Shown: one piece after another, positions 10,556 through 59,632 of the stretch | How positions within the stretch are numbered: position 1 is the stretch's first letter | How the letters are laid out: each line of letters starts with the position of its first letter | From: a virus | Taxonomy: Duplodnaviria > Caudoviricetes | Direction: 5' to 3' (one strand) | Virus record (IMG/VR): IMGVR_UViG_3300037067_005321 | Span: 1 to 64,000 of that record | DNA length: 64,000 nt | The notes under the pieces: generated by a model | What the model was told of the DNA's origin: nothing | The model's database searches: none | What the model saw: the letters and a program-made list of their open reading frames with translations, nothing else | Program-made: the position numbers and the translations under genes

Positions 10556-10649
10556 TATATGGCTAGGGATGTACACCTGAAAAGAAGGTACTTCCAACCT
10601 TCCTGCCATATATTTTAGAATGGAAGATAAATCAATGGAAGTGATTAAT
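10556..10649 (+). ncRNA. structured leader, class A copy 1 (candidate cis-regulatory RNA)
   Basis: Closing stem TATATGGC/GCCATATA; hairpin GAAGGT-ACTTCCA-ACCTTC whose loop is complementary to TGGAAGT (10636-10642) at the RBS. Confidence 0.75.
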
Positions 10650-11552
10650 ATGCCTAGAAAATTAGAATATGAGTTTATTAGAGAACAATTTGAAAAAAGT
10701 GGATGGACACTTTTAAGTAAAAAATATATTAATTCTAAAAAAAAGTTAAATGTAATGTGTGATAATGGTCATAAAATAAAAGTAAGATATGATCAATTTA
10801 AAGATGGTATAGGATGCTCTATTTGCTCCTTTGATAAAAAAAGACTATCTATAGATTTTGTAAAATCTGAATTAGAAAAATATGGGTTTATTCTAATATC
10901 AAAAAAATATATATCAGCAATAAAAAAGATTAAAATAAAATGTAAAGAAGGTCATATAACCACTACAACTTGGTCAATTTGGAAAGAACATAAATCATGC
11001 TCAGAATGTTCTAATAATAAAAAAAGAATATCATTAGGGATAATATTAAATAAATTAAATATATTAGGTATATATTTACTATCTAAACATTATACTAATA
11101 ATAAACAAAAATTAAAGCTAAAATGTAAAAATGGTCATATATTCTATTCTAGGTGGAATGATATTGATCAAGGACATACACAATGTAGACAATGTTATTT
11201 AAATTCTAAAATAGTTTATGATATAAAAGACATAGACAAATTCTATAAATATAGAATAATAGTACAAAGATTAACTAGAAAAATGTATAAACAATTTAAG
11301 GAATTAATAAATCCAAATAATTTAGAAAGATCGCAGGGAGCTAATCATCATCTAGATCATAAATTTTCAGTATTAGACGGATTTTTAAATAATATATCTC
11401 CTGAAATAATATCAAATCTATATAATTTACAAATGTTGCCTTGGTTAGAAAATTCAATTTATAAAAAGGGAAGTTCATCTATATCATATAAAGAGTTAAT
11501 GATAGGTTGGGAATTATATAATATATATTATATAGAAAATATTATTTATTAA
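10650..11552 (+). CDS. free-standing HNH-type endonuclease with 3 tandem Zn-ribbon repeats (start probably 10650)
   Basis: 3 x C..GH...C..C repeats; HLDHKFSVLDGF...NLQML...N C-terminal domain. Confidence 0.75.
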   Translation: MPRKLEYEFIREQFEKSGWTLLSKKYINSKKKLNVMCDNGHKIKVRYDQFKDGIGCSICSFDKKRLSIDFVKSELEKYGFILISKKYISAIKKIKIKCKEGHITTTTWSIWKEHKSCSECSNNKKRISLGIILNKLNILGIYLLSKHYTNNKQKLKLKCKNGHIFYSRWNDIDQGHTQCRQCYLNSKIVYDIKDIDKFYKYRIIVQRLTRKMYKQFKELINPNNLERSQGANHHLDHKFSVLDGFLNNISPEIISNLYNLQMLPWLENSIYKKGSSSISYKELMIGWELYNIYYIENIIY

Positions 11553-11555
11553 AAT

Positions 11556-11591
11556 AAAAGGCTACTTACTCTATTTGTAAGTAGCCTTTTT
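11556..11591. terminator. bidirectional rho-independent terminator
   Basis: AAAAGGCTACTTAC-TCTATTT-GTAAGTAGCCTTTTT between the convergent arms. Confidence 0.9.
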
Positions 11592-11609
11592 GCTAGGATA
11601 GGTGTATAT

Positions 11610-12515
11610 TTATTTGACTAGCCAAGAATTTGCTGTGGCAAGGTAGAAATCACGCACTCCATACTTATCAGTAATATGGGTAGCTGCTCCACTTTTATTA
11701 TTACTCCAATAAATTAAATCACTGGCATTATAACGTGACGCAATGAGGTCAGAAGCACTATTATTGCAAAGTACTAAATGCCTACCAACATTTCCACTGC
11801 TTCCTTTAGGAAGTTTAACTCTAGTCTTGCTACTATTTCCAGACAATAATATGGTAAAATCTGTATTAGTTGCAGTATAATCAACACTTATTGTTTTAGA
11901 TTTATGTTTATAAAAGTTACTATCTATTACTCTGAATGCTTTTGTTATAATGTAAGCTGAATTTGTATCTGAAGTAGATAGTTCTGGAATTGATAAATGG
12001 GGTGTAAAGGAAGTAAGTATTTGGTAGTTCATTCCAGACATAGTAGTTCCATACTGATAACTTGCTACAAAATCAGCAGTTGCAGTTAAATTACTTCCTA
12101 AAGTTATAGAGAATGATCCTAAATTATAGTCTATAGTCCCACTACCGGGAGGAGAAGCATCCCCAGATAAAGTTCCAGCACCATTATCTGTAAAATGCTC
12201 ATAACTGGCATTAATTGTTACTGTATTAGCTAAAATAGGTACATTGTCAATGTATCCAGAATACATCTTAGTTGCAGCCAATCCAGTAGCAACAACTTCA
12301 TTAGTAACATACCCCCAATAATTAGAATTTTCATAATTAGAAGATAATGTTAAGTTAGTTGCTGAATTTACAGAAGCTATATCATAAAAAACTGATTCAT
12401 CAGAGATTTTAAATATATCTCCTTGACCAATATATGTTGTAAATTCAGTACTATTTCCTATTACTTTAGCTGATCCAGGCTTTATGGTTACAGAATTTAC
12501 TGAGTACACGGACAT
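11610..12515 (-). CDS. putative tail fibre/accessory virion protein
   Basis: Ser/Thr/Gly-rich beta-type sequence (VIGNSTEF, GSGTIDYNLG) at the end of the tail module. Confidence 0.6.
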   Translation of the reverse strand: MSVYSVNSVTIKPGSAKVIGNSTEFTTYIGQGDIFKISDESVFYDIASVNSATNLTLSSNYENSNYWGYVTNEVVATGLAATKMYSGYIDNVPILANTVTINASYEHFTDNGAGTLSGDASPPGSGTIDYNLGSFSITLGSNLTATADFVASYQYGTTMSGMNYQILTSFTPHLSIPELSTSDTNSAYIITKAFRVIDSNFYKHKSKTISVDYTATNTDFTILLSGNSSKTRVKLPKGSSGNVGRHLVLCNNSASDLIASRYNASDLIYWSNNKSGAATHITDKYGVRDFYLATANSWLVK

Positions 12516-12560
12516 TATTTATACCTCAATATATCAATCACATAATTATTATGTGTAAAA

Positions 12561-13079
12561 TTACCACTCAAATTGACAAAAGCTCTCTAATAGAGAAAAG
12601 TCTTCTCTTGTTAAATTAATATCTGTATTAGTTATAACACATCTTTTCTCTTTTTTATATATCTCATTATCAAAATTATATAATATATCTCTACCATATA
12701 TAGTACATTTGTCTAGTTCTAAACCACTATCTATAGATAAAAGATCAGACCATTCTTTTAAATCTGTTGAAGATATGAAAATAGTTCTTTTAAACTCTTC
12801 AATCTTTTTCTTATTTTCCTCTTCAGTCCCTGATAAAGTTAAAGAATATTCATTAGTTTTTTCATCTATATATTTATCTATTATCTCTTTTCTTCTTTCA
12901 GAATATTCCTGAAATTCTGGTGATTTTATTATCTTCTTCTGAAAAACCCCATAATCAAATGCTGATTTTCCTGTTATACATTTGTCTAGTTTTATAAATG
13001 ATTTTCCCAAAGGATTTTCTGGATTAATGAAATATTCAAATACTACATTGTAAAACTTTATTTTCTCTTTTTCTCCCAT
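12561..13079 (-). CDS. hypothetical protein
   Basis: GGAG RBS and its own promoter-like sequence. Confidence 0.65.
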   Translation of the reverse strand: MGEKEKIKFYNVVFEYFINPENPLGKSFIKLDKCITGKSAFDYGVFQKKIIKSPEFQEYSERRKEIIDKYIDEKTNEYSLTLSGTEEENKKKIEEFKRTIFISSTDLKEWSDLLSIDSGLELDKCTIYGRDILYNFDNEIYKKEKRCVITNTDINLTREDFSLLESFCQFEW

Positions 13080-13121
13080 CTATTGTTCTCCATTTTAAAT
13101 AATAATATTAATAAAAAAGGT

Positions 13122-13193: not shown

Positions 13194-16100
13194 TTAACTT
13201 TTGTCAAGTGTTTTTTTCAAGTTTTCATAATCTTCTTTTAGAGAGTTAAAATCTCTATATAATTGCATTAAAGAACCTCGTAACCATGACGGCCAAATCT
13301 TAGAGGACATTGAGGGATTTCCTCTTGAACTTTTCATAATATCTCCCTTTTTCCACATTAATTCTTTTGTAAAAGGGTTATACATATCTTCAGCAGCCTT
13401 GACTAAGGCCCATTCTGGTAAAGTATTATCATCAATAAATTCTAAGCCCGATATTGGATCATATTTTCCTGAGCCTTTGATTTTTGCCAATTCTGCAAGA
13501 TCATCTCTATCATCTAAGAAAAAGAAATCTGCTTCTTCATTTACATTATAGACCCATAATTGATCCCATTGATAAGAAGTGCCATATCCAAGACTTATAC
13601 CTCGATCTGTAGAAGGAACTAAACCAGCAGTATTATAGCCCATTGATCGAAGTGTTCCATTGGCATCAGCAGTAAAGGTTATATTAGAAGCATTATTTGC
13701 TCCAGTGACAGTGATTAATGCATAATCATTTGAATCATAAGTAGTTTTCAATGTTGCTACAATTTCACTACTTGCATTAGATAATCTAAAATCTACAATA
13801 TTTACACCAGCTTGATATATAGTAATATATGAAAAAGGATTAGCACTTTCATTTAGCTGCATTACAATCTTCCCATAATTATTAGCGTCATACGTAACAC
13901 TGCTTGAAAATATAGCACTATTTGAGAAATAAGACCCCACACTTGAAACCCATACAACATCTGATGTGGCTGATCTCATCCTAATATATGTATCGTCTAT
14001 GGAAATATTATGTTTTCCAGTCCCTGTTTGACCAACAGTTATTGCCGAAGCACTTGAGTCTATAGAAATTAAATTTGTGGTATTATTCCTGAAATACATT
14101 GCTCCTGAACTAATAAGGATATTATTTTGGCTGGTGGACGCCCTACCTATAAGAACTGTAGATCCAAAAGAAGATAAAACAGTTGATCCACTTTTAACTT
14201 CTACCCCAGAGGAACTTACTTTTGTGTGATAACCAGCTTGATTCCCAAAATAAGCATTTCCACTAGTATCCCATTGACTATATACAGTTGTATTTACCCC
14301 TATTCTCAATCCATTAGTCTGTTCAATCGAAAACCATGCTTTTGATGCAGTTGCATATTGTCCTGCTGCTAATCCATAAATAGCAGAGGAATACCCATAG
14401 GAGCCATTAAGATTTCCTAATCTAAGTTGGGTAGTTAATGTAGTCCAGGGACTTCCAGCATGAGTAAACATGGAAATATATGGAGCATTAGTTTCTGAGG
14501 AAGTAAGATAAATTCCACCATCCCCGGACTGCCCAAAATTTGTAACACAAGTTCCTTTAGACCATGCCGGATTAGTATCAACCTCATACATAGCATTTTT
14601 GTCTCTTGAAACAGTATATGCCCCACTGGAAGTATCAGTATAATAAGTGTAAAAGCAAAGATCCACACTAGAATATGCAGTATAAGAACTTATATAATCA
14701 CATGAATTTCCATTATGAGTAGGAGAAATGGAATCTCCCCCAACTACAATATAATCAGTTGCACTACTTCCTGAAAACTCAATTGTTACAACATAATTGG
14801 TATCATCCACAGTTGTATATGGAGATGAAAAAGTAAAATCAGTAAGAGCAAAATCTGTGGTTAATGTTGAGACATCAAAAGCATCTGATGTAGCTAAAGC
14901 TTCTCCAGTTGGTACACTAGATACACCAAATGTTCCAGAATGAGCATATAATTTTGCATAAGCTGAACCTGTAGGACTGCTTGTTTTTTTCAAATAGAAT
15001 GATGCTTTTGTTAAAGCACTTCCATTACCTGTTATTGACTGTCCTCTTATAGAAGTAGGTGTACCTGCTGCAACTGTATAATACACATAGTATATTCTAT
15101 CATAAATAGAAGTAAGCCAAGCTGACGTTGCAATGTTATAATAAACACCATTTCCCTCATCTTCTGGAGTTCCATCAACCCCTATTGAAATATCATTACT
15201 AGCATCTGATGAGGTACTCGTAAATTGCAATGTGGTAACATAACGAGTTCCATTTACTGTAGCAACAGGAGATGAAAATGTGAAAGTAACAATTTGATAA
15301 CTTGTAGTTAATCCAGTGGCTACATCTACAGTTGCTGATGTTCCTAAAGCTGCCCCAGTAGGCAAACCAGAAGTACCCCAAGTTCCAGTATGAGCATAAA
15401 TTACTGCACTCATCGTTCCCGTGGGACTACCAACTTTTTTAATATAAAAACTTACCTTAGTTATTGACTCCCCATTTCCGGTAAATGTCTGCCCTCTTTC
15501 AAGAACATAGCCAGAATACATGAAACTATCTGTAGTCTGATTGGAAGAGGCATAACTATCCATCAAAGTATCTACTGCTGGAGAACTGTAACCTATTGAA
15601 TAATCAGTAGAATTATTACTTTCTGAATAACTATCCATTGTGGCTTCTTCACCTGTAGCAGTTACTTGAAACCACTCATCCTCTCCACCATCTTTTATCC
15701 TTAAAATATCACCAACAGAAAAAGTCTCATCACCTTTTATTGTCATTGTACATGAGTCTAAGGCTGTCATAGCTTCATCTAATACATCTGCTGGCCTGAT
15801 TAATACACTTCCACCAACTACAGAAATAGAGTCCTTTTGGAATACTGAGGCATGTATAACTCCTCTAGCAACAATATTTCCGACTTCTAGTAAATTAGAA
15901 TTAAGAATAAATCCTGCACCTAAATATCCGGAAACATAATTAGAACTTTGTATTGACATAGATGCACCATCTAGTTCTACATATGTTCCAGAATTATGAC
16001 CTAATCTCATCCTTGAATTTTCAGAATCAAGAAAGAAATAATCAGAATATAATAAAGATCCAGAAATAGTAAAATTACCAACATTGATTTGGTTATCTAC

Positions 16101-19100
16101 GCTATTGGCATTTTCAGACGCACTACTTGATGATGAATATTGACCATGCCAATCTACATCTCTAACCATACATGTAATAAGTGCTTTATTTCCGGCAGTT
16201 GCTAATTGAGCAGATGTTAATACAATAGATACATAATTGTTTTCTAAATTAACCCAAGCACTATATCCTTCCCCTGATACATCATAACTATATTGATAAT
16301 ATCTATGATCTAAATCAGTACCTTTATTCCATTCAAACTTTACACCACCAGGGATTCCAGATGCAGTAAGACCTGTTATATCGATAGGAGGAGAATTATA
16401 TGCTTCAAATGGTAAACTATACTCTGATTCACCACCATTCCTGCTTCTGGTAGCTATTTTAAAATATAATTTATTGTAATATCCACCATAAATAGTATTA
16501 TTTGCATCTGATAAGCAAGTATCATATGTATAAGTATACTGAGTAGTATTTACATATTCTGTTCTTAATAATTTAGACTCATCATTAGGATCAGAATAGT
16601 ATATTTTTACAATATAGCCATCAACAGAGTCTGTTGAACTATTTAAGGATACAGGATTCCAAAAAATAGTTATATCCTTACCATCCCATTTGTGGGTATT
16701 TGGCATATACCCACTTATGCATATTCCAGAGGGGCAAACCAAATCTGTAGGCATATTTGGTAAAAAGCAACTTACATATGAGTAAGCACTCCCTATACCA
16801 CTATTAGTTTTTCCTTGTAATCTAAAGTAATATGTTGCATTGGTTGCTAATGAATTGTTTATATATTTTAATGTATTATTATATATACTTCCTATGCTTT
16901 CATAAGTTCCATTATTAGTTACTGAAAACTCCACTATTATATAATCAGCATTAGTACATATAGCACTTATATTAAATCCTATTTCCCCACTGCTATTCAA
17001 AGCAACAATTGATATATTAGTTGGTTTTGCTAATTTTATAGTTGTAGGATTAGATAAATCTGTATCATTATTTTCTATTATAGATATAGTAGGCTCAGTA
17101 TATACCGAGGGAATATGATTTACAAGAGTAAGATCTACTTCATCTACTTTAGATCTTTTTACTTCTGTAAGTCTATATGGTTTTATATATGTACTTTTCT
17201 TACCAATTGCATATACAGCATCTGATTTTGGATATTCAGAATCAGGCCAATTTTGTAAAGAAGCTGTTTGTGAAACATTTCCATTTAAAATAGTAGCTGT
17301 TACAAAATTATTATCTGATGTTTGATACTTAATTAAATAAGTTGCTGTTACATCAGTAAAAGTATAGGTAGCTTCCAAGCTAACAGTCTTATTAGTAGCA
17401 TTATAGGATAATATCCTTCCACTATTTCCCCACCCAGGCAATGTATGAGAGATATTAACTATATCTCCAGCAGATGCATGTATATAATCTAGACCAACTT
17501 TAAAATTTATAACATGGTTGCTATTAATAGCATTACTGTGTTTGAATTTTAACTCTCTCTCAGCTTTTTGTCTATTTACTATTCCTTTTAGTCCTATACT
17601 AGATTTAGTAGATTTAATTAAGTCTGTATCTTCAGCAATAGATGATAAAAGCTTCTGTTGGTAATCATCAGAAGCATCAATATATTGGCCTTCCAAAATA
17701 TAAGGAATTTCTGTCAAATTAGTAAAAGATTGAGAAAAACTATCCTTTATTATATTTCCTAAAGAAAGTGTATGTATTGGGGTATCATTTTTATTGATTA
17801 TAAAGCTAATTACTCCATTTTTCCAGACAGGCCAACACCTAAAACTATTGCACATTTCAGCTAATGATGTAATAGCTGCTTGTTGCGTTTCTAAGACACC
17901 ATCAAATGTATGATAATGTTCTTTAATAGTTCCAGACATTGATGCATCAGATATTGTTACGGATCTATCATTAGTATCTCCCAATGCAAAAATATTTAAT
18001 CCTATATAAGCTATATTTGGATTAGTACATGTTATTGTAACAGATACATTACCTGAACCTGTATTACAGGTATTAGATCCTAACCAAACAAGATTAGTTT
18101 TGTTAGTAAAATTATCTTTACTTGCTGCTCCATATGCATTTACATTCAATCTTCCATTACGAGACATATTTAAAATCAATGTATATGTTCCACGCACTGA
18201 TAAAGTAGAACTTAGTCTAAATCCTACAGTATATCCATATGCACCACTCAGTATTATTTGTCTATTTGTTGCTGATGATGTTACAGCACCAGTATTTTCC
18301 CAAGCAGACCCCCACCAATACTTCGTCCATAAATTACTATTTATAACTGAATACCAACCAATATAATCAGGTTGGTTTCCATCATATGGATCATATGAAA
18401 CATGGCATGTTTTAATATTTGCTACCATCTCTGAAGTATTTAGGTCAGAAGAGGATAAATAATTGCCTAATCCAAATCTTTTATTTAAAACTAAATCTCT
18501 AACACATAAAATTGAATTATTTGAATATTCTGTCTTATATGTAACTTCATCCCAAGTTCTTTCAACCCCACCAGAAGTTTCAAATCTACTATTAGTAGAA
18601 CTATAATATGCAGAATCAAATGTTCCAGTCCCAGATAAAGATGGTACACTTATTTTTTTACCTTTAATAGTAGTTATAATATTAGGTATAGATCCAGATA
18701 ATTGATCTGTAGCTTTAATCTTTAATCCAAGTAATGCAGTATTGGGATATATAAAATTACCAGAAGTTACTTCTGTAATTGAATATAGCTGTATGCTATC
18801 TGCTACTTTATAATCAGAAGAAACTCCGGTTGTTCTTTGTAATTTTATAGAATATATTCCTTTTCCAAGACCATATGTAAGACTATCAAAATCTAAATAA
18901 AAACAGTCCCAAACAGCACTCTTGCTGGAATCTGTCATAGTTCTAGAATCAGCAGATGATGAATAAACAGTAGAATAAATTTCAATCTCATTTCCTACTT
19001 TTGCTAATTCAGGACTAACCCAAATAGTGTAATCTCCAATATAAGCAACCTCATTTGTCCAAGAATTACTCTCATATCCTGTTGATGTATTATAGTATAT

Positions 19101-20393
19101 ATGATTAGTACAATTTACAGTTAAGTAAGTAATTGATTTAGTAACAGTATTTGTACATTGTAAATATATAGTATAAATATCCGTATAGTTTCTATTACCA
19201 CCACTTACACCAGAATAACTAGTATAAGATGTTGTGTCTTTATAAACTTTTACTCTATAAGTTTCGGGTCTTATTCCAGAAGCATATGTTTCCCAAGGAG
19301 TATATCTAACCGCCCATATATTTTCAATTACTCCTGATATAGCTTTATAACCTACTAGATATTCTATAATTGTGGCAGAATGCCAAGTTTCTTCAGATTC
19401 CTCTTTATAAGATACACTATATTTAACTGATTGAGAAGCAAATCCAGAATCAGTTATTTTATATAAAGCAGGAGCTTTAACTTGTATAAGTACTTTATTA
19501 ACTTCTTTAGTCGTAGTATATGTAGTACCATCTAGAGTTATTTCCTTTTCTAGTGTATATAAAGCTCTAGCACCATCAAAATATGGGATAATATTTTGTT
19601 CAAAAGGATAAAACTCATTATTTGCTCCTACATTGTTAGTTCCAGTTCTATACCACCAACTTATATCTGTATAAGTATATAATGGCTGATCATTAATTAA
19701 TATTGCTGGATCTTTATATCCAACTCCTAAAGAATCGTTACTTGAAGTTGAATTTATATCTGAAGTAGTACATATAGAAGTATTATCTGAATATTGGCAA
19801 ATACCTTCTATTTCTCCTTCACATAATGCCAATAACATATATAAATAGCTATCTTTACCCTCACTCAATACATATGCTGAAATTAAATTTCCACCTACAG
19901 CATGTGTACCATATACTATAGGTATAGGTGCTTCATTAGATGCTATAGTAGAAATTCCTGACCAATTATATGTTTGAGATCCGCTGGAAGAAGTTGAAGC
20001 TGTTAATTGAGGTAAGTCTGGGGAGAATAGAGCACTCGATATAACTGATAATGCTCCACTAATCAGTAATGCATAACCTACAGATTTAAGAGGAGTAAAT
20101 ATTATTAATATAGCACCAATTGCTACAGATAGAAATCCACCACTTTCATTACTGCCATATTGTGGGTATAATACAATTAAATCATCTCGGGATACCTTGG
20201 TAGAAATCCACACATCTGGATGTTGTATTTCACCATTTAGTTGTATAACAACTTTTTGTGACATAATTATGTCATAAAGTTTTTTATCCTGCTGTTTAGC
20301 ATATGAATAGCAACTACCTAATAATGTATCATTATCAACAGATACAAATTCCGCGGTCTCATCAGGCAGATTTCTAAATGTAACTTTTGACAA
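13194..20393 (-). CDS. tail tip/central fibre protein (lambda gpI+gpJ-like fusion)
   Basis: gpI-like N-terminus, PIPIVYG, ALCEGEIEGI, YPNTALLGL, FN3-like repeats and C-terminal coiled coil; follows NlpC/P60. Confidence 0.88.
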   Translation of the reverse strand: MSKVTFRNLPDETAEFVSVDNDTLLGSCYSYAKQQDKKLYDIIMSQKVVIQLNGEIQHPDVWISTKVSRDDLIVLYPQYGSNESGGFLSVAIGAILIIFTPLKSVGYALLISGALSVISSALFSPDLPQLTASTSSSGSQTYNWSGISTIASNEAPIPIVYGTHAVGGNLISAYVLSEGKDSYLYMLLALCEGEIEGICQYSDNTSICTTSDINSTSSNDSLGVGYKDPAILINDQPLYTYTDISWWYRTGTNNVGANNEFYPFEQNIIPYFDGARALYTLEKEITLDGTTYTTTKEVNKVLIQVKAPALYKITDSGFASQSVKYSVSYKEESEETWHSATIIEYLVGYKAISGVIENIWAVRYTPWETYASGIRPETYRVKVYKDTTSYTSYSGVSGGNRNYTDIYTIYLQCTNTVTKSITYLTVNCTNHIYYNTSTGYESNSWTNEVAYIGDYTIWVSPELAKVGNEIEIYSTVYSSSADSRTMTDSSKSAVWDCFYLDFDSLTYGLGKGIYSIKLQRTTGVSSDYKVADSIQLYSITEVTSGNFIYPNTALLGLKIKATDQLSGSIPNIITTIKGKKISVPSLSGTGTFDSAYYSSTNSRFETSGGVERTWDEVTYKTEYSNNSILCVRDLVLNKRFGLGNYLSSSDLNTSEMVANIKTCHVSYDPYDGNQPDYIGWYSVINSNLWTKYWWGSAWENTGAVTSSATNRQIILSGAYGYTVGFRLSSTLSVRGTYTLILNMSRNGRLNVNAYGAASKDNFTNKTNLVWLGSNTCNTGSGNVSVTITCTNPNIAYIGLNIFALGDTNDRSVTISDASMSGTIKEHYHTFDGVLETQQAAITSLAEMCNSFRCWPVWKNGVISFIINKNDTPIHTLSLGNIIKDSFSQSFTNLTEIPYILEGQYIDASDDYQQKLLSSIAEDTDLIKSTKSSIGLKGIVNRQKAERELKFKHSNAINSNHVINFKVGLDYIHASAGDIVNISHTLPGWGNSGRILSYNATNKTVSLEATYTFTDVTATYLIKYQTSDNNFVTATILNGNVSQTASLQNWPDSEYPKSDAVYAIGKKSTYIKPYRLTEVKRSKVDEVDLTLVNHIPSVYTEPTISIIENNDTDLSNPTTIKLAKPTNISIVALNSSGEIGFNISAICTNADYIIVEFSVTNNGTYESIGSIYNNTLKYINNSLATNATYYFRLQGKTNSGIGSAYSYVSCFLPNMPTDLVCPSGICISGYMPNTHKWDGKDITIFWNPVSLNSSTDSVDGYIVKIYYSDPNDESKLLRTEYVNTTQYTYTYDTCLSDANNTIYGGYYNKLYFKIATRSRNGGESEYSLPFEAYNSPPIDITGLTASGIPGGVKFEWNKGTDLDHRYYQYSYDVSGEGYSAWVNLENNYVSIVLTSAQLATAGNKALITCMVRDVDWHGQYSSSSSASENANSVDNQINVGNFTISGSLLYSDYFFLDSENSRMRLGHNSGTYVELDGASMSIQSSNYVSGYLGAGFILNSNLLEVGNIVARGVIHASVFQKDSISVVGGSVLIRPADVLDEAMTALDSCTMTIKGDETFSVGDILRIKDGGEDEWFQVTATGEEATMDSYSESNNSTDYSIGYSSPAVDTLMDSYASSNQTTDSFMYSGYVLERGQTFTGNGESITKVSFYIKKVGSPTGTMSAVIYAHTGTWGTSGLPTGAALGTSATVDVATGLTTSYQIVTFTFSSPVATVNGTRYVTTLQFTSTSSDASNDISIGVDGTPEDEGNGVYYNIATSAWLTSIYDRIYYVYYTVAAGTPTSIRGQSITGNGSALTKASFYLKKTSSPTGSAYAKLYAHSGTFGVSSVPTGEALATSDAFDVSTLTTDFALTDFTFSSPYTTVDDTNYVVTIEFSGSSATDYIVVGGDSISPTHNGNSCDYISSYTAYSSVDLCFYTYYTDTSSGAYTVSRDKNAMYEVDTNPAWSKGTCVTNFGQSGDGGIYLTSSETNAPYISMFTHAGSPWTTLTTQLRLGNLNGSYGYSSAIYGLAAGQYATASKAWFSIEQTNGLRIGVNTTVYSQWDTSGNAYFGNQAGYHTKVSSSGVEVKSGSTVLSSFGSTVLIGRASTSQNNILISSGAMYFRNNTTNLISIDSSASAITVGQTGTGKHNISIDDTYIRMRSATSDVVWVSSVGSYFSNSAIFSSSVTYDANNYGKIVMQLNESANPFSYITIYQAGVNIVDFRLSNASSEIVATLKTTYDSNDYALITVTGANNASNITFTADANGTLRSMGYNTAGLVPSTDRGISLGYGTSYQWDQLWVYNVNEEADFFFLDDRDDLAELAKIKGSGKYDPISGLEFIDDNTLPEWALVKAAEDMYNPFTKELMWKKGDIMKSSRGNPSMSSKIWPSWLRGSLMQLYRDFNSLKEDYENLKKTLDKS

Positions 20394-23421: not shown

Positions 23422-26400
23422 TTATCCTGTTTTAAGTTTTCTATATATTGGTCCTTTACTATGAATATCATCAATAACATAATTAACAATAGTATTTTTA
23501 CCAGAGGGTCCACTAAGAAGTCTAGGTGCATCTGTTTCTCTAATGACATTAGCTATATAAATTGGAGTGCTACCTTGATTTCTAACATATCCAGAAACAG
23601 AATTAGATTTAATATTCTCCTCTGGAATAACTATTTCTTTACCAGAAGCATTATCTCCTAATACTGCTAGAGATGGGGCATTAGTCATACCACCAGATGA
23701 AAACTTTCTAAAGGCAGTTATTTTAGGAAGTACACCACCAGTTGCATATCCTGCTGAAGCACCAACATTTATATTACTTGATATTGCTCCTCCTATTTGG
23801 CCTCCTGTGCTAGATGTTGTAGTTGTTAGAGCTGATGCAATCCCCATCACAACTTGCATAGCAATCCATTCATTAATAGCTTGACGAATTGAATCAACTA
23901 AATCCTTGAAGAATGATTTAAATGCATCCTTTAAATTTTCTATAGGATCTTCCAGCTCATCTATTTGAGTTCTAAGATTTTTCATCTCATCAGTTATTTC
24001 AACGACTCTTTCAGCATTCCCTTCTGATATTGCTTCATCATATTCTTCTTTTAATTCTTTTAATTCAACTTTGAGTTCAGCAGCTTCCTGTCTTTGCTCC
24101 TGAAATCCTCCAGTGGAGTTTTGTAGTACAGTGGCTAATCCAGAAGCACCTTCTGTATAGGCTTTACTTATCCAACTAACTTTTGCTTCTTGGAAAGATT
24201 GTGCTTCTTTAACTAGTTGTTTATAAACATATAATAATGAATTTGAATATTTAAGTTCCTCTTCAATAAGGTCTAATGATTCAGTTTTATTATCTTTAAT
24301 TTTATCTTCATAATTTTTTATTTTAGTCTGATCACTAGTTAATTCCTTCATTTTTGAGTAAGATTCATTCTCAACATTAAGTATTTCTCTTTTAATCCTG
24401 AGAATTTCTTCATTATCACCTACTAATTCAGCTTCTTTTTGGGCTAATGCCAACTCAAGAAGTCTAACTTCTAGTTGTTCCTCTTCCTTCTTAATTCTAA
24501 GATTTTCATTATCAGAATCTCTTTGAGCCTTATTTGCTGATCTTTGATTATCAACCGTTTTCTTTGATACATCATATTGTAATTGTATTAAATCCACATT
24601 TTCATTATTTAATTGATTTATATTTCTTTGTATATCAATATTATCTTGTGATAAATCATTTTTTTGTTGCTGTAACTCATAAATTTTATTGATTTGATCA
24701 GTGTCCTCTTTTCCAACTTTCAATTCTTCTATAGAATTATCTATACCTTTTTTCTTTTCTTCATTAATTTTAATTTGAGTTTCTAATGAATCAATAAATC
24801 TTGACTTTGCTTTTTGATCATTAACTTTTATTAATTCTTTTACTTCTAATTCTCTTAGTTTAGTTGATTTAGCTATCTGAGAATTGGTTCTACCATCCCA
24901 TTTATCACCTAATTCTTTTAATTTATTTAATTTCTCAGTCTTATTGATAATATCATCATTAATTTGTATAATTTGACTTTCTATATCAGAATTTTTAATA
25001 GCCTTAGATGCTTCTTCTTCTAAAATTTCTAATTTCTTTTTGCTAAGTTGTAAATCTAATTCAGCAGAAGATATATTATCATCATTATACTTTTTTTTAG
25101 CAGTATATAGAGATTTTTCAGCTTTTAATTCCTCTTGCGTTCTTTTTACATACTCGGATCTTAAATTTAGTTCAGCAGCAGCTTGATCAAAAGTTACTGA
25201 TACATCTGCACCTTCTGTAGTTTCTTCAGATGTTCCATATACTGTTCTAAGATTTTGTGCAATTTCTGGATTTTTAGATCCTGCTATTATAGCTTTTTCT
25301 AATTCTTCTCTTACTTTCTTAGCTTTTTCATAAGCTTCTTCTTTGGCTTTTATATCTTTTTCTGTAATAGATAAATTTTCTTCATTAGATTCTATAGTTA
25401 AATTACTTATATCTAATAATGTCTTTGCATCAAGAACTTCTTGTTTAGTATCAACTTTGAGAGTTTCTCTAGATGTTATACCTATTTTGTCCATTTCATC
25501 ATAAAGACCCAATAGTTCTTTTAATATTTTTAAATTACTACCAGTTTTAATATCTTTAGATAAAGATCCTACTCCAATAACATTTTTAGCAGCACTTAAT
25601 GCAGTTACACCTTTTTGTGTTTTTATATATTCTTTTATTAAAGCAATATCTTCTTTACTTAAATCTTGTATAAATTTTGCTTTTGTACTAGTTTTATCTA
25701 ACTTACTAAATATATCAGCAATAGTTTGAATATCTTGGACATTTCTACCCATTTGAAGAGCTTTATTCATTTTATCTATCCAATATTGGACATCTTCTAA
25801 TAAAATTGATGCTTCGGAAGCATATGCTTTTATACTACCCCATAATTTACTCCAAGACTTAGACATTGTATCTAATGCTCTTTTTTCAATTTCTGCTGCT
25901 TCACCAGTTGATTCACCTGTTTGTTTTATTTTATCTTCCCACTCATCCCAATTTCTGATTATAGCTAATAAAGAGTTTATACTTCTTGCACCCATATCTT
26001 CAAAAACTAATGCTAATTTTGAAACTGATATATCCCCTTTTCCTAGTTTAGTAGCTAACTGATCAAATATATCTAATATGTCTAATGATTTTGTTGGATC
26101 TATACTAATACCAAAATTTTCTTCAAATTTAGAAGCATTTTGTGCTATTTTTAAAAGAACAGTTCTCATTTCTGTTCCAGCTTTAGATCCTTTAATTAAA
26201 TTATCATTTAAAAGACCTAAAATATTGCCCATTTGCTCAAATGTTAAATTTGTAAGTTTACCAGTTGAAGCTAAGTAGGAATATCCAGTTACTAATTCTG
26301 ATATTTCTATTTGATGTTCCTTCCATACTTTAGCCAAAACATCATTAATATATAAAAATTTATCTTCTAATGTAGTTACATGAGTAATAGTATCACCAAA

Positions 26401-28589: not shown

Positions 28590-29669
28590 TTATTTCATCC
28601 AACCAATTTCTTTGTAAAACTGGTACAAATCATATCCAATATATAGTTCTTTGAGAGTGATTGAAGAATTAGCTTTCTTTTTCCAATTTATTGTTGGTGA
28701 TAGCATCTCTAAATTATATGGATTTGAGATTATGTCTGTTAATATTTTATTTTTAAATCCTTCTGCTACTGAAACTCTATGATCCAGATGAGCTTCATCT
28801 TTATTATTTCCACGTATTAAACCTAATGGATTTATAAAATCTTCTTCTAAATTATATATTCTGTATGTTTTGTTTCTAGCATCTCTATTATAGAGATGAA
28901 ATTCTTCTATTTCTTCTTCTGAATAATATTTATAGATTGATAATCTATAACATTTTGGACATCTGCATCCATTAATCCAATTTGCCATTTTGGTAATATA
29001 TTGATGTCCTTCTGAACAAATAGTTATTAATGGAGATCTAACATTTTTATATTCAGTAGATATTAAAGTATAATTTTCTAGTTCTAATCTTTCTCTAACT
29101 ATATCAATATTAACTAATTTATTACCAATACATCTACCACATCTCTGTCCTTGTTTCCAGCAAGTCCATAATATTTCATGATGATGCCCTTTTGGACAAA
29201 TAAATTTAAGTTTTTCACTAGGATCTTTATATTTAGTACTTAATAAGATATATCCTTCCTTTTCAAAGGACTTTCTAATATTGTCAATACTTTCACATCT
29301 ATTTTCTGAATAACATACCCCACACCTTGATCCATTTCTCCAAGAATTTTTACTCATTGAAATTTTATGTCCTTCTGGACAAATCAAATTTAGTTTTTGT
29401 TTACTATCTTTATAATTTGTAGTTAATAATTGATATCCTTCTGATTCTACTTCTTCTTTTAAATCATTTAATTTAGTTCTCTTATCTTCATGAGCACACA
29501 AAAAACAACCAGCACCAGATTTAAAGTGTGAATATCTTAACTGATGTTTATGCCCTCTATCACAAATAAAATCTAACTTTTGATTTGAGTCAATATATTC
29601 CGTAGATAATAAGACCCAACCACGTTTTTCAAACTCTGATTTAATAAATTCATAAGAATGTTTTTTCAT
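28590..29669 (-). CDS. free-standing HNH-type endonuclease with 4 Zn-ribbon repeats
   Basis: 4 x C..GH...G..C..C; HLDHRVSVAEGF...NPYNLEML; paralog of 10650 and 32321. Confidence 0.75.
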   Translation of the reverse strand: MKKHSYEFIKSEFEKRGWVLLSTEYIDSNQKLDFICDRGHKHQLRYSHFKSGAGCFLCAHEDKRTKLNDLKEEVESEGYQLLTTNYKDSKQKLNLICPEGHKISMSKNSWRNGSRCGVCYSENRCESIDNIRKSFEKEGYILLSTKYKDPSEKLKFICPKGHHHEILWTCWKQGQRCGRCIGNKLVNIDIVRERLELENYTLISTEYKNVRSPLITICSEGHQYITKMANWINGCRCPKCYRLSIYKYYSEEEIEEFHLYNRDARNKTYRIYNLEEDFINPLGLIRGNNKDEAHLDHRVSVAEGFKNKILTDIISNPYNLEMLSPTINWKKKANSSITLKELYIGYDLYQFYKEIGWMK

Positions 29670-29748
29670 ATATTACCTCTGCTATAAGTAATTTTGATAG
29701 GCTGAGGAGTAGATAGCAGCTACTCCTCACTTACGTCCGTCGAACCTA
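29670..29748 (-). ncRNA. structured leader, class B copy 1
   Basis: Closing stem TAGGT/GCCTA; hairpin TGAGGAGTAG-CTGCTAT-CTACTCCTCA whose loop is complementary to ATAGCAG directly before the AGGT RBS. Confidence 0.75.
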
Positions 29749-29752: not shown

Positions 29753-29780
29753 AATATAATCACTATTTAGCAAATGTCAA
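29753..29780 (-). promoter_or_regulatory. sigma70-like promoter
   Basis: TTGACA-N12-TGAT-TATATT. Confidence 0.65.
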
Positions 29781-32320: not shown

Positions 32321-33190
32321 TTATAATGCTAAATATTCTCTATATCCAAGATATAATTCATCTAACGTAATTTCTGAAGTACCAAGTTTAGATAAATTAT
32401 CATGCTCTATTAACATTTGTAAATTAAATGGATTAGCTATTACTTCTGGACTTATCCCATTTAAAAATCCATCTAACACTGTATAAATATGATCTAGGTG
32501 GTATTGATATCTACCTCTTGGAAGATTTAGAGGATTAATTATATATTTATATATTTTATATATCTTATTTGAGATTCTATCTACTATTTTTCTATATTTA
32601 TAATATTCAAAAATATCATAAAAATTGTATCTTAATCTAGATTCAAAGAAACATTTCTTACATCTATGGCCCTGCTGAAAATCATTCCATCTTAATTTTA
32701 ACTTATGATTATTAGGACAAACTAATTCTAATTTCTGATAACAGTTGAAATATGTATTTGTAAGTAATTTATAACCCTCTAATTCCATTATATTTTTTAT
32801 TTCATTTATATCTTTTCTAGCATTCCCAGAACAATGAGGACACCTATATCCAGAATACCAATTAGCATAACTCATACTATTTTTATGTTCTTTAGGGCAA
32901 ATATACTCTAATTTTTGTAAGGTATTTTGATAAGTAGTACTTATTAAAATATATCCCTCTTTAAGAAACTGATTTCTAATAAAAGATATATCTAATCTTT
33001 TATTATTAGAACACTGACCACACCTTTGGCCAAATAGCCAACTATCATATCTTATTTTTCCATAATGTCCTTTTGGGCATATATACTCTAATGGATTTTT
33101 ATTATTTTTATATTTATTACTTAGTACTGTATATCCTTCTTTCTCAAATTCTTCTTTTACTAATTCAATAGTTATCTTCCTACGTTTCAT
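32321..33190 (-). CDS. free-standing HNH-type endonuclease with 3 Zn-ribbon repeats
   Basis: 3 x CP..H...G.RC..C; YHLDHIYTVLDGF...NPFNLQML. Confidence 0.75.
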   Translation of the reverse strand: MKRRKITIELVKEEFEKEGYTVLSNKYKNNKNPLEYICPKGHYGKIRYDSWLFGQRCGQCSNNKRLDISFIRNQFLKEGYILISTTYQNTLQKLEYICPKEHKNSMSYANWYSGYRCPHCSGNARKDINEIKNIMELEGYKLLTNTYFNCYQKLELVCPNNHKLKLRWNDFQQGHRCKKCFFESRLRYNFYDIFEYYKYRKIVDRISNKIYKIYKYIINPLNLPRGRYQYHLDHIYTVLDGFLNGISPEVIANPFNLQMLIEHDNLSKLGTSEITLDELYLGYREYLAL

Positions 33191-33287
33191 TATTATAATT
33201 CCTCCTCATAATTTGTTTCCTCTTTTATTTAATTTATGGCAGGTAGGTGAGGAGTACCTACTTTTCGGTTACGTTTACCTAGCCATA
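33191..33287 (-). ncRNA. structured leader, class A copy 2
   Basis: Closing stem TATGGC/GCCATA; hairpin GTAGGT-ACTCCTC-ACCTAC whose loop is complementary to the GAGGAG RBS. Confidence 0.75.
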
Positions 33288-33294
33288 CCTTATA

Positions 33295-33322
33295 TGTATA
33301 ATCACTATTTATAATTTGTCAA
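33295..33322 (-). promoter_or_regulatory. sigma70-like promoter
   Basis: TTGACA-N12-TGAT-TATACA, starting immediately after the upstream stop codon. Confidence 0.6.
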
Positions 33323-36079: not shown

Positions 36080-36538
36080 TTACTCACCTACCATAAGTTC
36101 TTTTATTTCATCTGGTATATTACAAATATGATCAGATGTTTTGACTATTATTTTTTCAAATTTATTTAATAAGTCTATTAAAACTTTATCATTTGTACAA
36201 AGTATTGTTCTTATTCCAGAAGTACCAATATATAAATTCAATTGAAATACTAGTCTATAAATATCTAATCCTTCAGAATAATCTAGATTAGTAATCTTCT
36301 TTATCTTTAACTTTTTACCTATTTTATATAGGTCAAACTGCCTCTGTGCAACTATAGCATCAGAACACAATTTTGGATAATTAATTGAAGGACTATCACT
36401 ACAAATAATAATTATATCATATTCATTATTATCTGAAGTTATAGTGTCAAAGAATTCATAAATCCAGTTATAGCAAGTATATGAAATTATTAATTTTTTC
36501 ATTAATATATCCTCTTCAAATCTGAATAGCATTCCCAT
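36080..36538 (-). CDS. hypothetical protein (weak PIG-L-like resemblance)
   Basis: Last gene of the glyco cluster; start more likely at the internal MKKLII. Confidence 0.5.
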   Translation of the reverse strand: MGMLFRFEEDILMKKLIISYTCYNWIYEFFDTITSDNNEYDIIIICSDSPSINYPKLCSDAIVAQRQFDLYKIGKKLKIKKITNLDYSEGLDIYRLVFQLNLYIGTSGIRTILCTNDKVLIDLLNKFEKIIVKTSDHICNIPDEIKELMVGE

Positions 36539-37173
36539 GGCGTAGCTATTATTCTTTTATCTACAGCTTCTTGACTATTATAAAATATTATTGAATGTTT
36601 CTTTTGGCTAAGACAGACAAAACTTATAAAACCCTCTGGACCAATAAAGAACTCACAATTTTGGGCTAAACAAATTAGATCTCTTATATTAGTCTCACCA
36701 ACTAGATTAACACAATTTCTTACACTTTTATAAATAGGATTATTACCTACTAAAACACATCTAAAATCTTTGTTTTCTTCTATTATAGAATTTACTGAAT
36801 CAATTGAAAATCTTTTACAGTTTCTTCCTTCTAATTTTCCACTATGGGGTTGTAGTATCCAAAATGGTTTATCAAAACAAAATCTATTATGTAAATCAAA
36901 TTGAGGAAAATATTCCATATCTTCATGGCAATCAGCGGTTATCTCTGGAATATCTAATCTAGGTTTTTCTGTGAATTCAAGTTCTATAATGAAAATATTA
37001 TATATTTCTGAAATTGATTGAGCATAGGAAATTGGATCTAAATAAGCAAACACCTTGCATTGTTTTTTTATCTTTATAACTTTTAGGCAATGAATATAAC
37101 TGTCCCCTATCCCCGCTCCAATAGAGGCTAACTCAAACAAAGTTAATCTCCATATATAAATTATAATCTTCAT
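36502..37173 (-). CDS. GT9 (heptosyltransferase-like) protein
   Basis: GIGD, NLVGETNIRDLI...FIGPEG. Confidence 0.65.
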   Translation of the reverse strand: MKIIIYIWRLTLFELASIGAGIGDSYIHCLKVIKIKKQCKVFAYLDPISYAQSISEIYNIFIIELEFTEKPRLDIPEITADCHEDMEYFPQFDLHNRFCFDKPFWILQPHSGKLEGRNCKRFSIDSVNSIIEENKDFRCVLVGNNPIYKSVRNCVNLVGETNIRDLICLAQNCEFFIGPEGFISFVCLSQKKHSIIFYNSQEAVDKRIIATPWECYSDLKRIY

Positions 37174-37369
37174 ATAACTCTCCTAAAGTTATATATGAAT
37201 TACCATTTTTGCTACTATTTTCAGAATGCTCTAACATTCTAAGATTAAATGGGTTTCCAATTACTTCTACTGGAACTTTATTTCTAAATCCATCTACTAC
37301 TGAAAATATATGATCAACATGAAATTTACTTTCATCTTTCCATTCTTTACATTTTGTGCATTGTTTCAT
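37133..37369 (-). pseudogene. internally deleted or minimal HNH endonuclease
   Basis: MKQCTKCKEWKDESKFH joined directly to VDHIFSVVDGF...NPFNLRML; lacks the repeat array and helical linker of its paralogs. Confidence 0.6.
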
Positions 37370-37463
37370 CTTAATCACTCCCCCCTGATTTATCTCCTCT
37401 TTTATTTAATTATGGCAGGTAGGTGAGGAGTACCTACTTTTTGGGAGCTGCCCTAGCCATAAT
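37370..37463 (-). ncRNA. structured leader, class A copy 3
   Basis: Closing stem ATTATGGC/GCCATAAT; hairpin GTAGGT-ACTCCTC-ACCTAC whose loop matches GAGGAG and GGGGAGT downstream. Confidence 0.75.
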
Positions 37464-56645: not shown

Positions 56646-56654
56646 AGAATTCTC

Positions 56655-57231: not shown

Positions 57232-57297
57232 GAAAAAGACTCTCTAAATTTTGCATTGTCAAGAGGCATAGAGAGTATGGTAAGTTACTGAAATTAC

Positions 57298-57642
57298 TTA
57301 TGTTTGATCACAAAGGCTGGCGACAGTATTGCTGGAAAATCTGTATAGACCGTTACCTGCCAACACTATTGAACCAAGAATAGTTGCACTTTGACAAGTT
57401 AAAGTTGCTTCAGCAGGAAGACTAGCAGCAGTATTTTTACCAGAGAAAAATATAAACTTTCTATTTGCACCAGTTCCTATTTTAATATAACTGGATACAG
57501 TTACAGCAGGAGCACTTGCAGCAGTTCCTACCACTAAATTTGTTGCAGCAACCGTAGCACATGTTACTGTGGCAAAACCTTTTATGTCAACTTTTGCTCC
57601 TGTTTTTGGATATAAATTACTTTTATAATGTGAATTTCCCAT
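57298..57642 (-). CDS. putative virion protein
   Basis: Ala/Thr-rich; in the head-gene neighbourhood. Confidence 0.55.
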   Translation of the reverse strand: MGNSHYKSNLYPKTGAKVDIKGFATVTCATVAATNLVVGTAASAPAVTVSSYIKIGTGANRKFIFFSGKNTAASLPAEATLTCQSATILGSIVLAGNGLYRFSSNTVASLCDQT

Positions 57643-57739
57643 CTAACACCTTCCATTGTTGAGGTACATAAATATCTGGGTAAATACTTATGATATCATA
57701 TCGGAATAATATGAATCCTCTTTATTAAATAAACTAAGT

Positions 57740-58336
57740 TTATTTTTTCAACACCCAAACTTTCTGCTTGGGATTTGTCCTATCAACTAAATCTACTTTA
57801 TAACCATGTTCTTTGCATAAATAATCAACTATATTAACATTTGTCATTCTGAGAACACTTTCATTCTTATTAGCAATCTCAGATGCTTGTGTTTTATATA
57901 TATTCATCTTTTGTCTAGTTACTTGAGTTTCAGAAATTGGTGTTCCATGCTGATATCTATTAATAAGTTCAATTACTTCCTTTTTGGTTACTTTATGAGT
58001 AGAAAGAAAATCAGATAGTAATTCATTTGGATCTTCTTCTTTTGCAGATAACATATTCTTTCTTAGTTCTTTTTGTGTTATTCCTATATCTTCTATTTGT
58101 GAAGATGATACTACATTATTTATTATATCCTCTTCTTTTATTTCTACTATAGATTCATCATCATCTTTAAATTGATTTTCTGATAAATCTAATACTTCCT
58201 CTTTATTATCTGAATCAACTATCTCAGTTCCCTTCTCATAAACATCATAATCCTCTTTAGACATTTTATGCAATTTACGGATATGGACTGTTAGATTAAC
58301 AAACTTTTTACCACAAACTTTACATTCTTTTTCCAT
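57740..58336 (-). CDS. C2H2 Zn-finger hypothetical protein
   Basis: CKVCGKKF..L..HIRKLH. Confidence 0.65.
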   Translation of the reverse strand: MEKECKVCGKKFVNLTVHIRKLHKMSKEDYDVYEKGTEIVDSDNKEEVLDLSENQFKDDDESIVEIKEEDIINNVVSSSQIEDIGITQKELRKNMLSAKEEDPNELLSDFLSTHKVTKKEVIELINRYQHGTPISETQVTRQKMNIYKTQASEIANKNESVLRMTNVNIVDYLCKEHGYKVDLVDRTNPKQKVWVLKK

Positions 58337-58375
58337 ATATAAGCTACCTCCATAGCTGTTTAGTTACATCCGTAA

Positions 58376-58645
58376 CTATTTCTTTAATTTATTATATTGT
58401 TCTGAAACAGACTTTCTTTGCTGACCTAAAGTATCAATATAGATTACATTAGAATCATAATCACTTTCATTACCATAAGCAGACTCTATATCTTTGCGAT
58501 ATGCTTTTAACCCTTCCGAGTTTTTAGCATAAGTACCATATAACTTCTTTCCTTTTTTCCATTTAAAAGCTTCTGACATATCTTTACTAGTAGTAGAAAT
58601 TTCACTAGTAGCAGAAACTGTTAATGTATCCTGATCAAAGCCCAT
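58376..58645 (-). CDS. hypothetical protein
   Basis: GAGGTGA RBS. Confidence 0.6.
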   Translation of the reverse strand: MGFDQDTLTVSATSEISTTSKDMSEAFKWKKGKKLYGTYAKNSEGLKAYRKDIESAYGNESDYDSNVIYIDTLGQQRKSVSEQYNKLKK

Positions 58646-58649
58646 TTAA

Positions 58650-59516
58650 TCACCTCTTAAAATTTAAGTATAATAGTATACTTTCAAATGTTCTCATTTG
58701 ATCATCTGATATAACCTCATAGGAATATCCATTTTCTTCTGCAAATTTATATCCAGCTTCTATTTTAGCTATAGTTTTTGGAAATTCTAATTTATATTTA
58801 GGTTTTATCTCTTGTATATATCTATCATTAATGATAAAATCTGGTACATAATTTCTAATATGTCCTTCAAATTCATACTTTATTATAAAAGGTTCCATAT
58901 CATATTTGATTACATCATCTGAAAATTCTAAGATATTTAAGTATATTTCTTCCCAAGAGGATCTATATAAAAAAGTTTTATTATTTTTAATTGAATAAAA
59001 ATAACCTTGTTTATGATATTTTCCTCTTATAATTCCTTTAGCAGCATTTTCAGAAACTCTATCAGCAACTTCTGGTATTTTCATTGGATTATCAACACCA
59101 TATTTTTCTAACAAAGTTTTTTCTCTACTATCTTTTGCTTTTAACATTGAAGAAACTTTATGAGTTTTACCAGCAAAAGAATTATTATCTAATTGACTTA
59201 TAGATATTTTATTCTTATGATCTTGTGATAATTTTCTTCCTTTAGTAGAGATATTTCCAATAGCAATTTTACTTTGTAATTCTTTTTTATAATCAGACAT
59301 TAATTTTGCATCTGGAAATAATTTTAAGTATTCTTCTTTAGTTAAATTATGTCTATTTTTTAAATGTTTAGGATTTAAATAAGTTCTTTTTAAACCACAT
59401 ATTTTACACTCAATATAATCTATATTTTCTATTCCATCTTTAAATTTTATCAAAGATTTTTCTACTTCATGTCTTATTAAATAATTAAGAGATCTTTCTC
59501 TAGAAGACATTGCCAT
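58650..59516 (-). CDS. free-standing PD-(D/E)xK (TnsA-N-like) endonuclease with a Zn finger and NUMOD3-like motifs
   Basis: CKICG...HL..RH; HKNKISIS; EKYGVDNP; YRSSWE...YVPDF...EIKP. Confidence 0.78.
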   Translation of the reverse strand: MAMSSRERSLNYLIRHEVEKSLIKFKDGIENIDYIECKICGLKRTYLNPKHLKNRHNLTKEEYLKLFPDAKLMSDYKKELQSKIAIGNISTKGRKLSQDHKNKISISQLDNNSFAGKTHKVSSMLKAKDSREKTLLEKYGVDNPMKIPEVADRVSENAAKGIIRGKYHKQGYFYSIKNNKTFLYRSSWEEIYLNILEFSDDVIKYDMEPFIIKYEFEGHIRNYVPDFIINDRYIQEIKPKYKLEFPKTIAKIEAGYKFAEENGYSYEVISDDQMRTFESILLYLNFKR

Positions 59517-59598
59517 GTCATTAACCTCCGTAATAGGATTATTCTAGGGTGTGGATGAAGATTACGGCCCCATCCACATTTAATCCTGCCAGACCCTA
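59517..59598 (-). ncRNA. structured leader, class B copy 2
   Basis: Closing stem TAGGG/CCCTA; hairpin TGTGGATGGGG-CCGTAAT-CTTCATCCACA whose loop is complementary to ATTACGG before the AGGT RBS; an extra AGGATTA/TAATCCT pairing. Confidence 0.78.
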
Positions 59599-59604
59599 TT
59601 TTAT

Positions 59605-59632
59605 AATATAATCATTTTATTTCTTTTGTCAA
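59605..59632 (-). promoter_or_regulatory. sigma70-like promoter
   Basis: TTGACA-N12-TGAT-TATATT. Confidence 0.65.

Follow-up and report, generated by a model that had tools for sequence, protein, structure and literature searches.

Structured leaders of five phage nuclease genes with hairpin loops complementary to their own ribosome-binding regions: relation to the int-alpA RNA motif and putative role in translational control

The int-alpA RNA motif (Rfam RF02996), reportedly described by Weinberg et al. 2017 in a comparative-genomics survey, is named after the integrase and alpA genes near which it occurs in prophages or satellites of Proteobacteria; the C4 RNA of phage P1 has a target site that includes the ribosome-binding site (RBS) of the first gene. 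The CI RNA of P4 pairs with seqA and seqC (PMC4825925), and the homing endonucleases of phage T4 are restrained by RNA structures that sequester the RBS (PMC2988022). Here, five structured leaders (U1 to U5), each preceding a nuclease gene of an uncultured phage of the Caudoviricetes, are analysed and compared with these systems. They lie in a window of 64,000 nucleotides (nt), the first 64 kb of the 135.7-kb IMG/VR record IMGVR_UViG_3300037067_005321; positions given below are those of the window unless the genome is named. All five leaders form a hairpin whose loop measures 7 nt; a complement of this loop, 6-7 pairs long, directly adjoins or overlaps the gene's own Shine-Dalgarno (SD) sequence.

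The original prediction, made from the letters of the window, had placed a leader of this kind before each of the five genes and had described a 7-nt loop with its complement at the gene's own SD, and all of this was confirmed in the sequence. It had further regarded the leaders as copies of one unit, in which it recognised no named RNA family. The plan of hairpin and loop is indeed common to the five, but they fall into two structural classes, class A (U1, U3 and U4) and class B (U2 and U5), and class A has a second, upstream complement of the loop. The three class A copies are members of RF02996, while U2 and U5 match no Rfam family.

Two classes of leader and the genes they precede

U1 (10556..10612, +), U3 (33236..33289, -) and U4 (37409..37463, -) score 39.5, 43.3 and 47.6 bits, respectively, with the int-alpA model (gathering score 35.8) over its full length (positions 1-71) and are its only three matches in the genome; they are new members of a catalogued motif without known function. 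Their architecture is a three-way junction of the form P1-UA-P2-GAAAA-P3-CU-P1', and the minimum-energy folds of U1 and U4 independently give the same P1-P2-P3 junction (U1, z -3.0). They resemble int-alpA in the junction fold, in the junction nucleotides and in a purine-rich 3' tail complementary to the P3 loop: in the model the tail (positions 68-71, AgGG) complements the loop's CCuU, and the first loop complement (site 1) of U1, U3 and U4 aligns there. The Rfam model carries a small RNA (sRNA) label with no function assigned, has a U-run after P1 and does not include gene context; neither a second target at the SD nor a logic of two sites, as in the present copies, forms part of it. The setting also differs from that of the name, as the units precede homing-type nuclease genes of an AT-rich phage and are not near int or alpA. 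The motif is not discussed in the main text of PMC5737381, and literature searches, outside which lay the supplement of the original survey with a possible drawing of a pseudoknot, returned no functional study of int-alpA.

In U1, P1 (10556-10563/10605-10612), P2 (10566-10578) and P3 (10584-10589/10597-10602) present the loop ACUUCCA (10590-10596, +). Its first complement, UGGAAG (site 1; 10621..10626, +; duplex -7.6 kcal/mol), is followed by UGGAAGU (site 2; 10636..10642, +; -8.9 kcal/mol), which pairs with the loop at 7/7 positions within the SD-like GGAAGUGAU ahead of the ATG at 10650 and sits in the loop of a weak local hairpin. Each of the two sites opens with an in-frame ATG (10620 and 10635) ahead of 10650, the start that homology supports, and mechanical calling of open reading frames (ORFs) therefore lengthens the gene by 10 codons. 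In U3, P3 is formed by GUAGGU (33261-33256) and ACCUAC (33248-33243) around the loop ACUCCUC (33255-33249, -); site 1 is GAGGA (33218..33222, -; -6.8 kcal/mol), and site 2 is the SD itself, GAGGAGG (33201..33207, -; -9.8 kcal/mol), with the ATG at 33190. U4, which begins 3 nt behind the upstream ORF, is identical to U3 in P3 and loop (37431-37425) and carries a compensatory change in P2. Its site 1 is GAGGAG (37394..37399, -; -9.5 kcal/mol), and its site 2, GGGGAGU (37377..37383, -; -9.7 kcal/mol), makes 7 pairs including one G-U within the SD-like GGGAGUGAU upstream of the ATG at 37369. Loop and SD-proximal site differ between U1 and U4 at three positions, and the pairing is kept in all three. 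In public metagenome assemblies of this phage, the breaks fall exactly on the stretch that U3 and U4 have in common (33236-33265 and 37412-37439), which is an effect of the repeat; contigs of three DNA sequencing runs compared with the phage gave no informative variants and no cassette-free joints.

U2 (29698..29748, -) and U5 (59545..59598, -) gave no Rfam match at E ≤ 10, even when stretches of ~100 nt were scanned with lax filters. In both, a short P1 (UAGGU/GCCUA or UAGGG/CCCUA) is followed by a junction of ~14 nt whose last letters are UAA(A/G) and by a P3 of 10-11 bp that carries the 7-nt loop. In U2, P1 pairs UAGGU (29748-29744) with GCCUA (29702-29698), the junction measures 14 nt and P3 10 bp, and the loop CUGCUAU (29720-29714, -) is complementary at 7/7 positions to AUAGCAG (29679..29685, -; -8.8 kcal/mol), which is joined to AGAGG ahead of the ATG at 29669. 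This target forms the loop of a local hairpin (AUUACUU/AGGUAAU) with the SD on its 3' arm, and a first pairing, by the junction, is short (UAAGU/ACUUA). U5 has P1 UAGGG (59598-59594)/CCCUA (59549-59545), an 11-bp P3 and the loop CCGUAAU (59567-59561, -). Its junction segment AGGAUUA (59587-59581) is a second exact complement, of UAAUCCU, which stands directly 5' of the loop target AUUACGG (59534-59528); the two therefore make up a contiguous 14-nt target (59528..59541, -) read by two segments, with duplexes of -7.6 and -7.9 kcal/mol, overlapping the SD GGAGG ahead of the ATG at 59516. Over the five units, duplex energies range from -6.8 to -9.8 kcal/mol, with -6.8 to -9.5 kcal/mol at site 1 and -7.9 to -9.8 kcal/mol at site 2.

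A third class B copy was found by a descriptor search in an unrelated IMG/VR phage, L041 (961-1017, -). The class as proposed comprises P1 UAGG(N)/(N)CCUA, an optional small P2, a linker ending in UAA(A/G), a P3 of 9-11 bp, a loop of 6-7 nt and a complement of this loop that joins the SD. The L041 unit shares P1 UAGGU/GCCUA, has its own promoter upstream and precedes an HNH_3/AP2-type endonuclease ORF (L041:427-930, -), at whose SD tandem GUUAG-GUUAG targets lie; the complement of its loop adjoins this SD. It folds into a clean three-way junction (z -3.4) with P1 UGUAGG/CCUACA, P2 CGCU/AGCG, the linker GUAAA and a 9-bp P3, and class B therefore appears to have the int-alpA topology with other junction letters. 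L041 also has an int-alpA unit (1920-1964, +), which precedes a DUF1376 gene. In 50 phage records, the class B sequence pattern gave 9 matches vs ~28 in the reversed control, the known L041 unit being the only convincing one, and a MAFFT alignment of the three units disagreed with their structure. Judged by sequence, class B is probably an uncatalogued cousin of int-alpA that would apply the same logic on a second scaffold.

The genes behind the leaders encode two unrelated nuclease folds, as the original prediction had it, namely an HNH-like fold (PHROG 559/5104) and a TnsA-like PD-(D/E)xK fold (PF08722). Gene 1 (10650..11552, +; 300 aa; PHROG 559 'HNH endonuclease', 1.9e-27), whose start was set at 10650 by alignment with its paralogs, gene 2 (28590..29669, -; 359 aa; PHROG 559, 1.1e-38) and gene 3 (32321..33190, -; 289 aa; PHROG 681/559 and the Pfam CapR domain) are paralogs that combine zinc-ribbon/CapR-like repeats with a common HNH-like C-terminal domain (H-x-D-H...N...N). 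Gene 4 (37133..37369, -; 78 aa; PHROG 5104/23051) consists of the HNH-like C-terminal domain only, its H-D-H...N...N columns being invariant in the paralog alignment; right behind it lies a 223-aa ORF (36502-37173, -) with no Pfam or PHROG match. Gene 5 (58650..59516, -; 288 aa) encodes the TnsA-like PD-(D/E)xK domain (PF08722, 5e-10, above cut-off) together with NUMOD3. Outside the window, at 130173-131075 (+) of the genome, a sixth HNH-type paralog has the same C-terminal domain (HIDHIFSV...N...NL), directly follows a small gene and has no structured leader.

Neither the int-alpA model nor the class B descriptor found a further unit in the 135.7-kb genome, in which the units precede nuclease genes only. 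For the three loops that do not resemble an anti-SD sequence (ACUUCCA, CUGCUAU and CCGUAAU), an exact 7-mer complement at a distance of a few dozen bases is rare: a genome-wide descriptor scan gave mostly AT-only chance matches, and among the few others only those of U1, U2 and U5 immediately precede a gene start. The genome has terminal repeats and ~29% GC, and the phage is apparently lytic. DNA near-identical to it is present in groundwater and landfill metagenomes, and the public sequencing runs listed for near-identical sequence include no RNA run. No INPHARED phage gave a megablast match to 10 kb of the phage, and a related-locus search of IMG/VR with nuclease genes 2 and 5 as queries returned no relatives.

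The proposed cassette of promoter, RNA and nuclease holds for U2, U3 and U5, which have a promoter of their own; no such promoter was seen upstream of U1 and U4. The promoters of U2 (29753..29780, -; TTGACA 29780-29775, TGATTATATT 29762-29753), U3 (33296..33322, -; TTGACA 33322-33317, TGATTATAC 33304-33296) and U5 (59605..59632, -; TTGACA 59632-59627, TGATTATATT 59614-59605) are of the general strong promoter type of the phage, with the consensus cTTGACA-N14-TGATTATAtTAT, also with a preceding A, (A)TGATTATAtTAT. Four other genes under the same promoter (13207-, 49353-; genome 70248-, 71113-) have short unstructured leaders. Other features of the window include ORFs of 2399 aa (13194-20393, -) and 1458 aa (23422-27798, -) between the nuclease cassettes, a tRNA-Trp (CCA) gene (6786-6860, +) and a sub-threshold match to the Rfam abiF RNA (RF03085; 57239-57275, -; 30.3 bits vs a gathering score of 37, E 0.2).

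Covariation and gene context across IMG/VR phages

A pattern search of IMG/VR with the class A junction letters returned at least 119 contigs, and 116 non-redundant int-alpA-type units with 78 different loops, among the matches listed, were analysed; RF02996 matched 34 of 40 pattern-found records that were re-scanned. In these units the loop has two downstream complements, the first just after the closing stem, 10-17 nt past CCUGCC, and the second at the SD, 13-15 nt beyond the first and ending 5-10 nt before the start codon. U1, U3 and U4 show exactly this layout. Each loop was tested against its own leader as well as against leaders whose units have unrelated loops, at least 5 contiguous Watson-Crick pairs being counted as pairing. 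Site 1 pairs with the unit's own loop in 85% of cases vs 4.8% for the loops of other units, and site 2 in 73% vs 8.6%. Both sites pair in 67% vs 0.7%, and the covariation of loop and RBS region originally claimed for the five copies is thus a property of the listed units. Where a genome has two units their loops differ (5/5 records).

The helices P2 and P3 co-vary with all four pair types, pairs 2-4 of P3 being 91-100% canonical with all four Watson-Crick types. A count of G-U vs A-C strand asymmetry was dropped, being confounded by loop-closing positions. In phages of ~29% to >60% GC, GGCUAGG, GAAAAG and CCUGCC of the junction are nearly invariant while every helix varies, the pattern search itself having selected for these nucleotides. 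Of 79 units, 49 have site 2 within a hairpin loop vs 28 expected from shuffles, and so do U1-U4, which fits a loop-loop contact. T makes up 47% of the 9 nt that follow P1 vs 26% overall, with a T-run in 53 of the 116 units; this run is terminator-like and fits the sRNA label of Rfam. The structures, the complementarity, the family-wide covariation of loop and site and the position at the SD are direct observations.

The original prediction had the unit before nuclease genes only, travelling with selfish nucleases. The former statement holds within the genome of this phage; elsewhere the unit mostly precedes non-nuclease genes, and specific travel with nucleases was not borne out. Pfam analysis of 110 ORFs downstream of the listed units identified DUF1376 in 32, DUF927 in 14, antirepressor types (Rha, AntA, ANT, P22_AR_N, KilA-N) in ~10 and HNH_3, HNH, NUMOD and DUF559 types in ~10. 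The int-alpA-type motif is not nuclease-specific; most often, outside this phage, the gene behind it is a replication (DUF1376, DUF927) or antirepressor gene. Homologs of the TnsA-like nuclease with 30-34% identity (L123, L126) have no such leader, the start in L123 being almost leaderless, and the nuclease 2 homologs of Bacillus phages Eldridge and BSP12 and Escherichia phage JEP8 are preceded by a terminator, a promoter and a short leader only. No culturable model system was found among the cultured-phage homologs of nuclease 2. L123, an unrelated metagenome contig, has the same promoter type (170-200) before its TnsA-like nuclease.

Proposed translational control in cis and its alternatives

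The leaders are most readily read as 5' RNAs that would control the translation initiation of the following gene by base pairing in cis, a reading to which a probability of about 0.55 is assigned. A compact junction of P1, a small P2, an A-rich linker and P3 would present the 7-nt P3 loop, and pairing of this loop with the site that abuts or overlaps the SD would exclude the 30S subunit, so that little nuclease would be made. Loop and site would meet as a pseudoknot, or as a loop-loop kiss in those cases in which a small hairpin loop holds the site; a brake of this kind, proposed from the outset, is judged the most economical reading. Class A may constitute a two-state switch, in which the loop would free the SD when bound to site 1, ~13-15 nt upstream, and block it when bound to site 2. 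The two sites are mutually exclusive because both pair with overlapping parts of the loop, and their duplex energies are similar, so that a small bias could flip the state. Class B, without a site 1, would read a longer target through two segments, the junction and the loop. Repression rather than activation, action in cis and a balance between the sites are the parts that we infer.

Several points weigh against this reading. The local hairpins (-1.3 to -3.2 kcal/mol) and the AU-rich 7-pair contacts are weak. The loop of U3 and U4, ACUCCUC, is a generic anti-SD sequence that would match any strong SD, and the very high conservation of the junction (CUAG, GAAAAG, CCUG) goes beyond a simple pairing switch. 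Class B comprises three copies only, too few for a covariation test. Lastly, the extreme diversity of the loops may suit a trans-acting specificity code equally well as, or better than, a pure cis element.

Such a code would arise if the junction were released, by termination after P1 or by processing, as an antisense RNA that accumulates, base-pairs with both sites of other transcript molecules and brings about a dose-dependent shut-off, the private pair of loop and target then serving as an immunity-like specificity code as in C4 of P1/P7, CI of P4 and IsrK of Gifsy-1. This second-ranked explanation, though rather unlikely, would account for 78 different loops on an almost invariant scaffold, for the different loops within two-unit genomes, and for the U-rich tract after P1 in the listed units together with the U-run and sRNA label of the Rfam model. 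The downstream antirepressors and replication initiators are classic targets of C4 and CI, and the pairing of CI with seqA and seqC and the action of IsrK on its own mRNA (PMC4825925) suit it as well. It is weakened by U3 and U4, which have no U-tract after P1 and no predicted terminator and whose common anti-SD loop would strike many mRNAs in trans; the C4 model (RF01695), moreover, has no match at E ≤ 10 in the window or in the class B stretches.

Activation, in which the P3 loop would kiss and open a small hairpin holding the SD in the manner of IsrK/DsrA-type activators, is improbable. IsrK is a precedent, and site 2 does lie in a hairpin loop with the SD on the 3' arm in U2 and many of the listed units; but hairpins as weak as those noted above would hardly stop a ribosome, and the loop complement runs into the SD (AUAGCAG-AGG in U2, AUUACGG-AGG in U5, GAGGAGG in U3), which the contact would occlude. 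There is an equally small chance that the junction is a riboswitch or a protein-binding site, a bound factor (the encoded protein or a host factor) deciding between site 1 and site 2. The near-invariance of the junction across the listed phages while the helices vary would be expected of such a sensor, but this conservation is partly built in by the search. Downstream genes of such diversity do not suit autoregulation by a single protein, class B follows the same logic with another junction, and there is no ligand candidate.

A role as guide or cofactor RNA of the nuclease, which had earlier been left open, or as DNA-level homing or recombination repeats, would agree with the adjacency of the units to nuclease genes only within the window, but is highly improbable: the RNA targets the sense strand of its own leader, at the SD, and elsewhere it precedes replication, antirepressor and structural genes. 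The element is moreover common to two unrelated nuclease folds, tolerates G-U pairs (U4 site 2, U5 P3) and has helices that co-vary as RNA.

Control in cis is thus ranked first and action in trans second, with activation and sensing as minor options, on the sequence evidence at hand. A wider proposal, which is tentative and on balance doubtful, is that int-alpA-type and class B RNAs form a widespread programmable lock with a private loop and target code for each phage, satellite or selfish cassette. The lock would act both in cis and in trans as a C4/CI-like immunity or dosage layer on replication, antirepressor and homing-nuclease genes, with the junction as a processing or sensing module.

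The orphan motif int-alpA gains from this analysis a concrete hypothesis, that of a two-site target overlapping the SD and co-varying with the loop, and class B would carry the same logic on a second scaffold that is absent from Rfam, the database searched. The findings suggest that phages may throttle toxic or timing-critical genes by means of a portable, re-addressable RNA module, and an engineered translational switch could be built on so small a natural scaffold, the 7-nt address of which is exchangeable.

Comparison with described systems

C4 of P1/P7 and CI of P4 share with the present leaders an RNA located in the leader of the controlled operon, with loops complementary to two sites on the transcript, and they control antirepressor and replication genes, as do many int-alpA units. 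The two reading segments of class B resemble the a'/b' elements of C4. In the present leaders, unlike C4 and CI, both targets lie downstream of the RNA, and P4 CI works by transcription termination. RNase P processing to a stable, trans-acting RNA is a further mark of the C4/CI type. A complement of the RBS in the leader of its own operon is a likeness in the manner of working to C4 and CI, not membership of their family. IsrK of the Gifsy-1 prophage has the same plan of one promoter, a short RNA and a read-through mRNA, the RNA acting on the translation initiation region of its own mRNA, but it activates translation and has an unrelated structure (PMC4825925).

The closest parallel in the type of gene is provided by I-TevI, I-TevII, I-TevIII, segB and mobE of Aeh1, in which the translation of a selfish nuclease is likewise kept low by RNA structure at the SD (PMC2988022), and a translational brake on homing-type nucleases would agree with this T4 precedent. 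The T4-type structures are simple local hairpins that are bypassed by an internal late promoter (PMC2988022), whereas in the present leaders a separate folded domain would reach the SD by a loop contact and belongs to a portable family with a variable 'address'.

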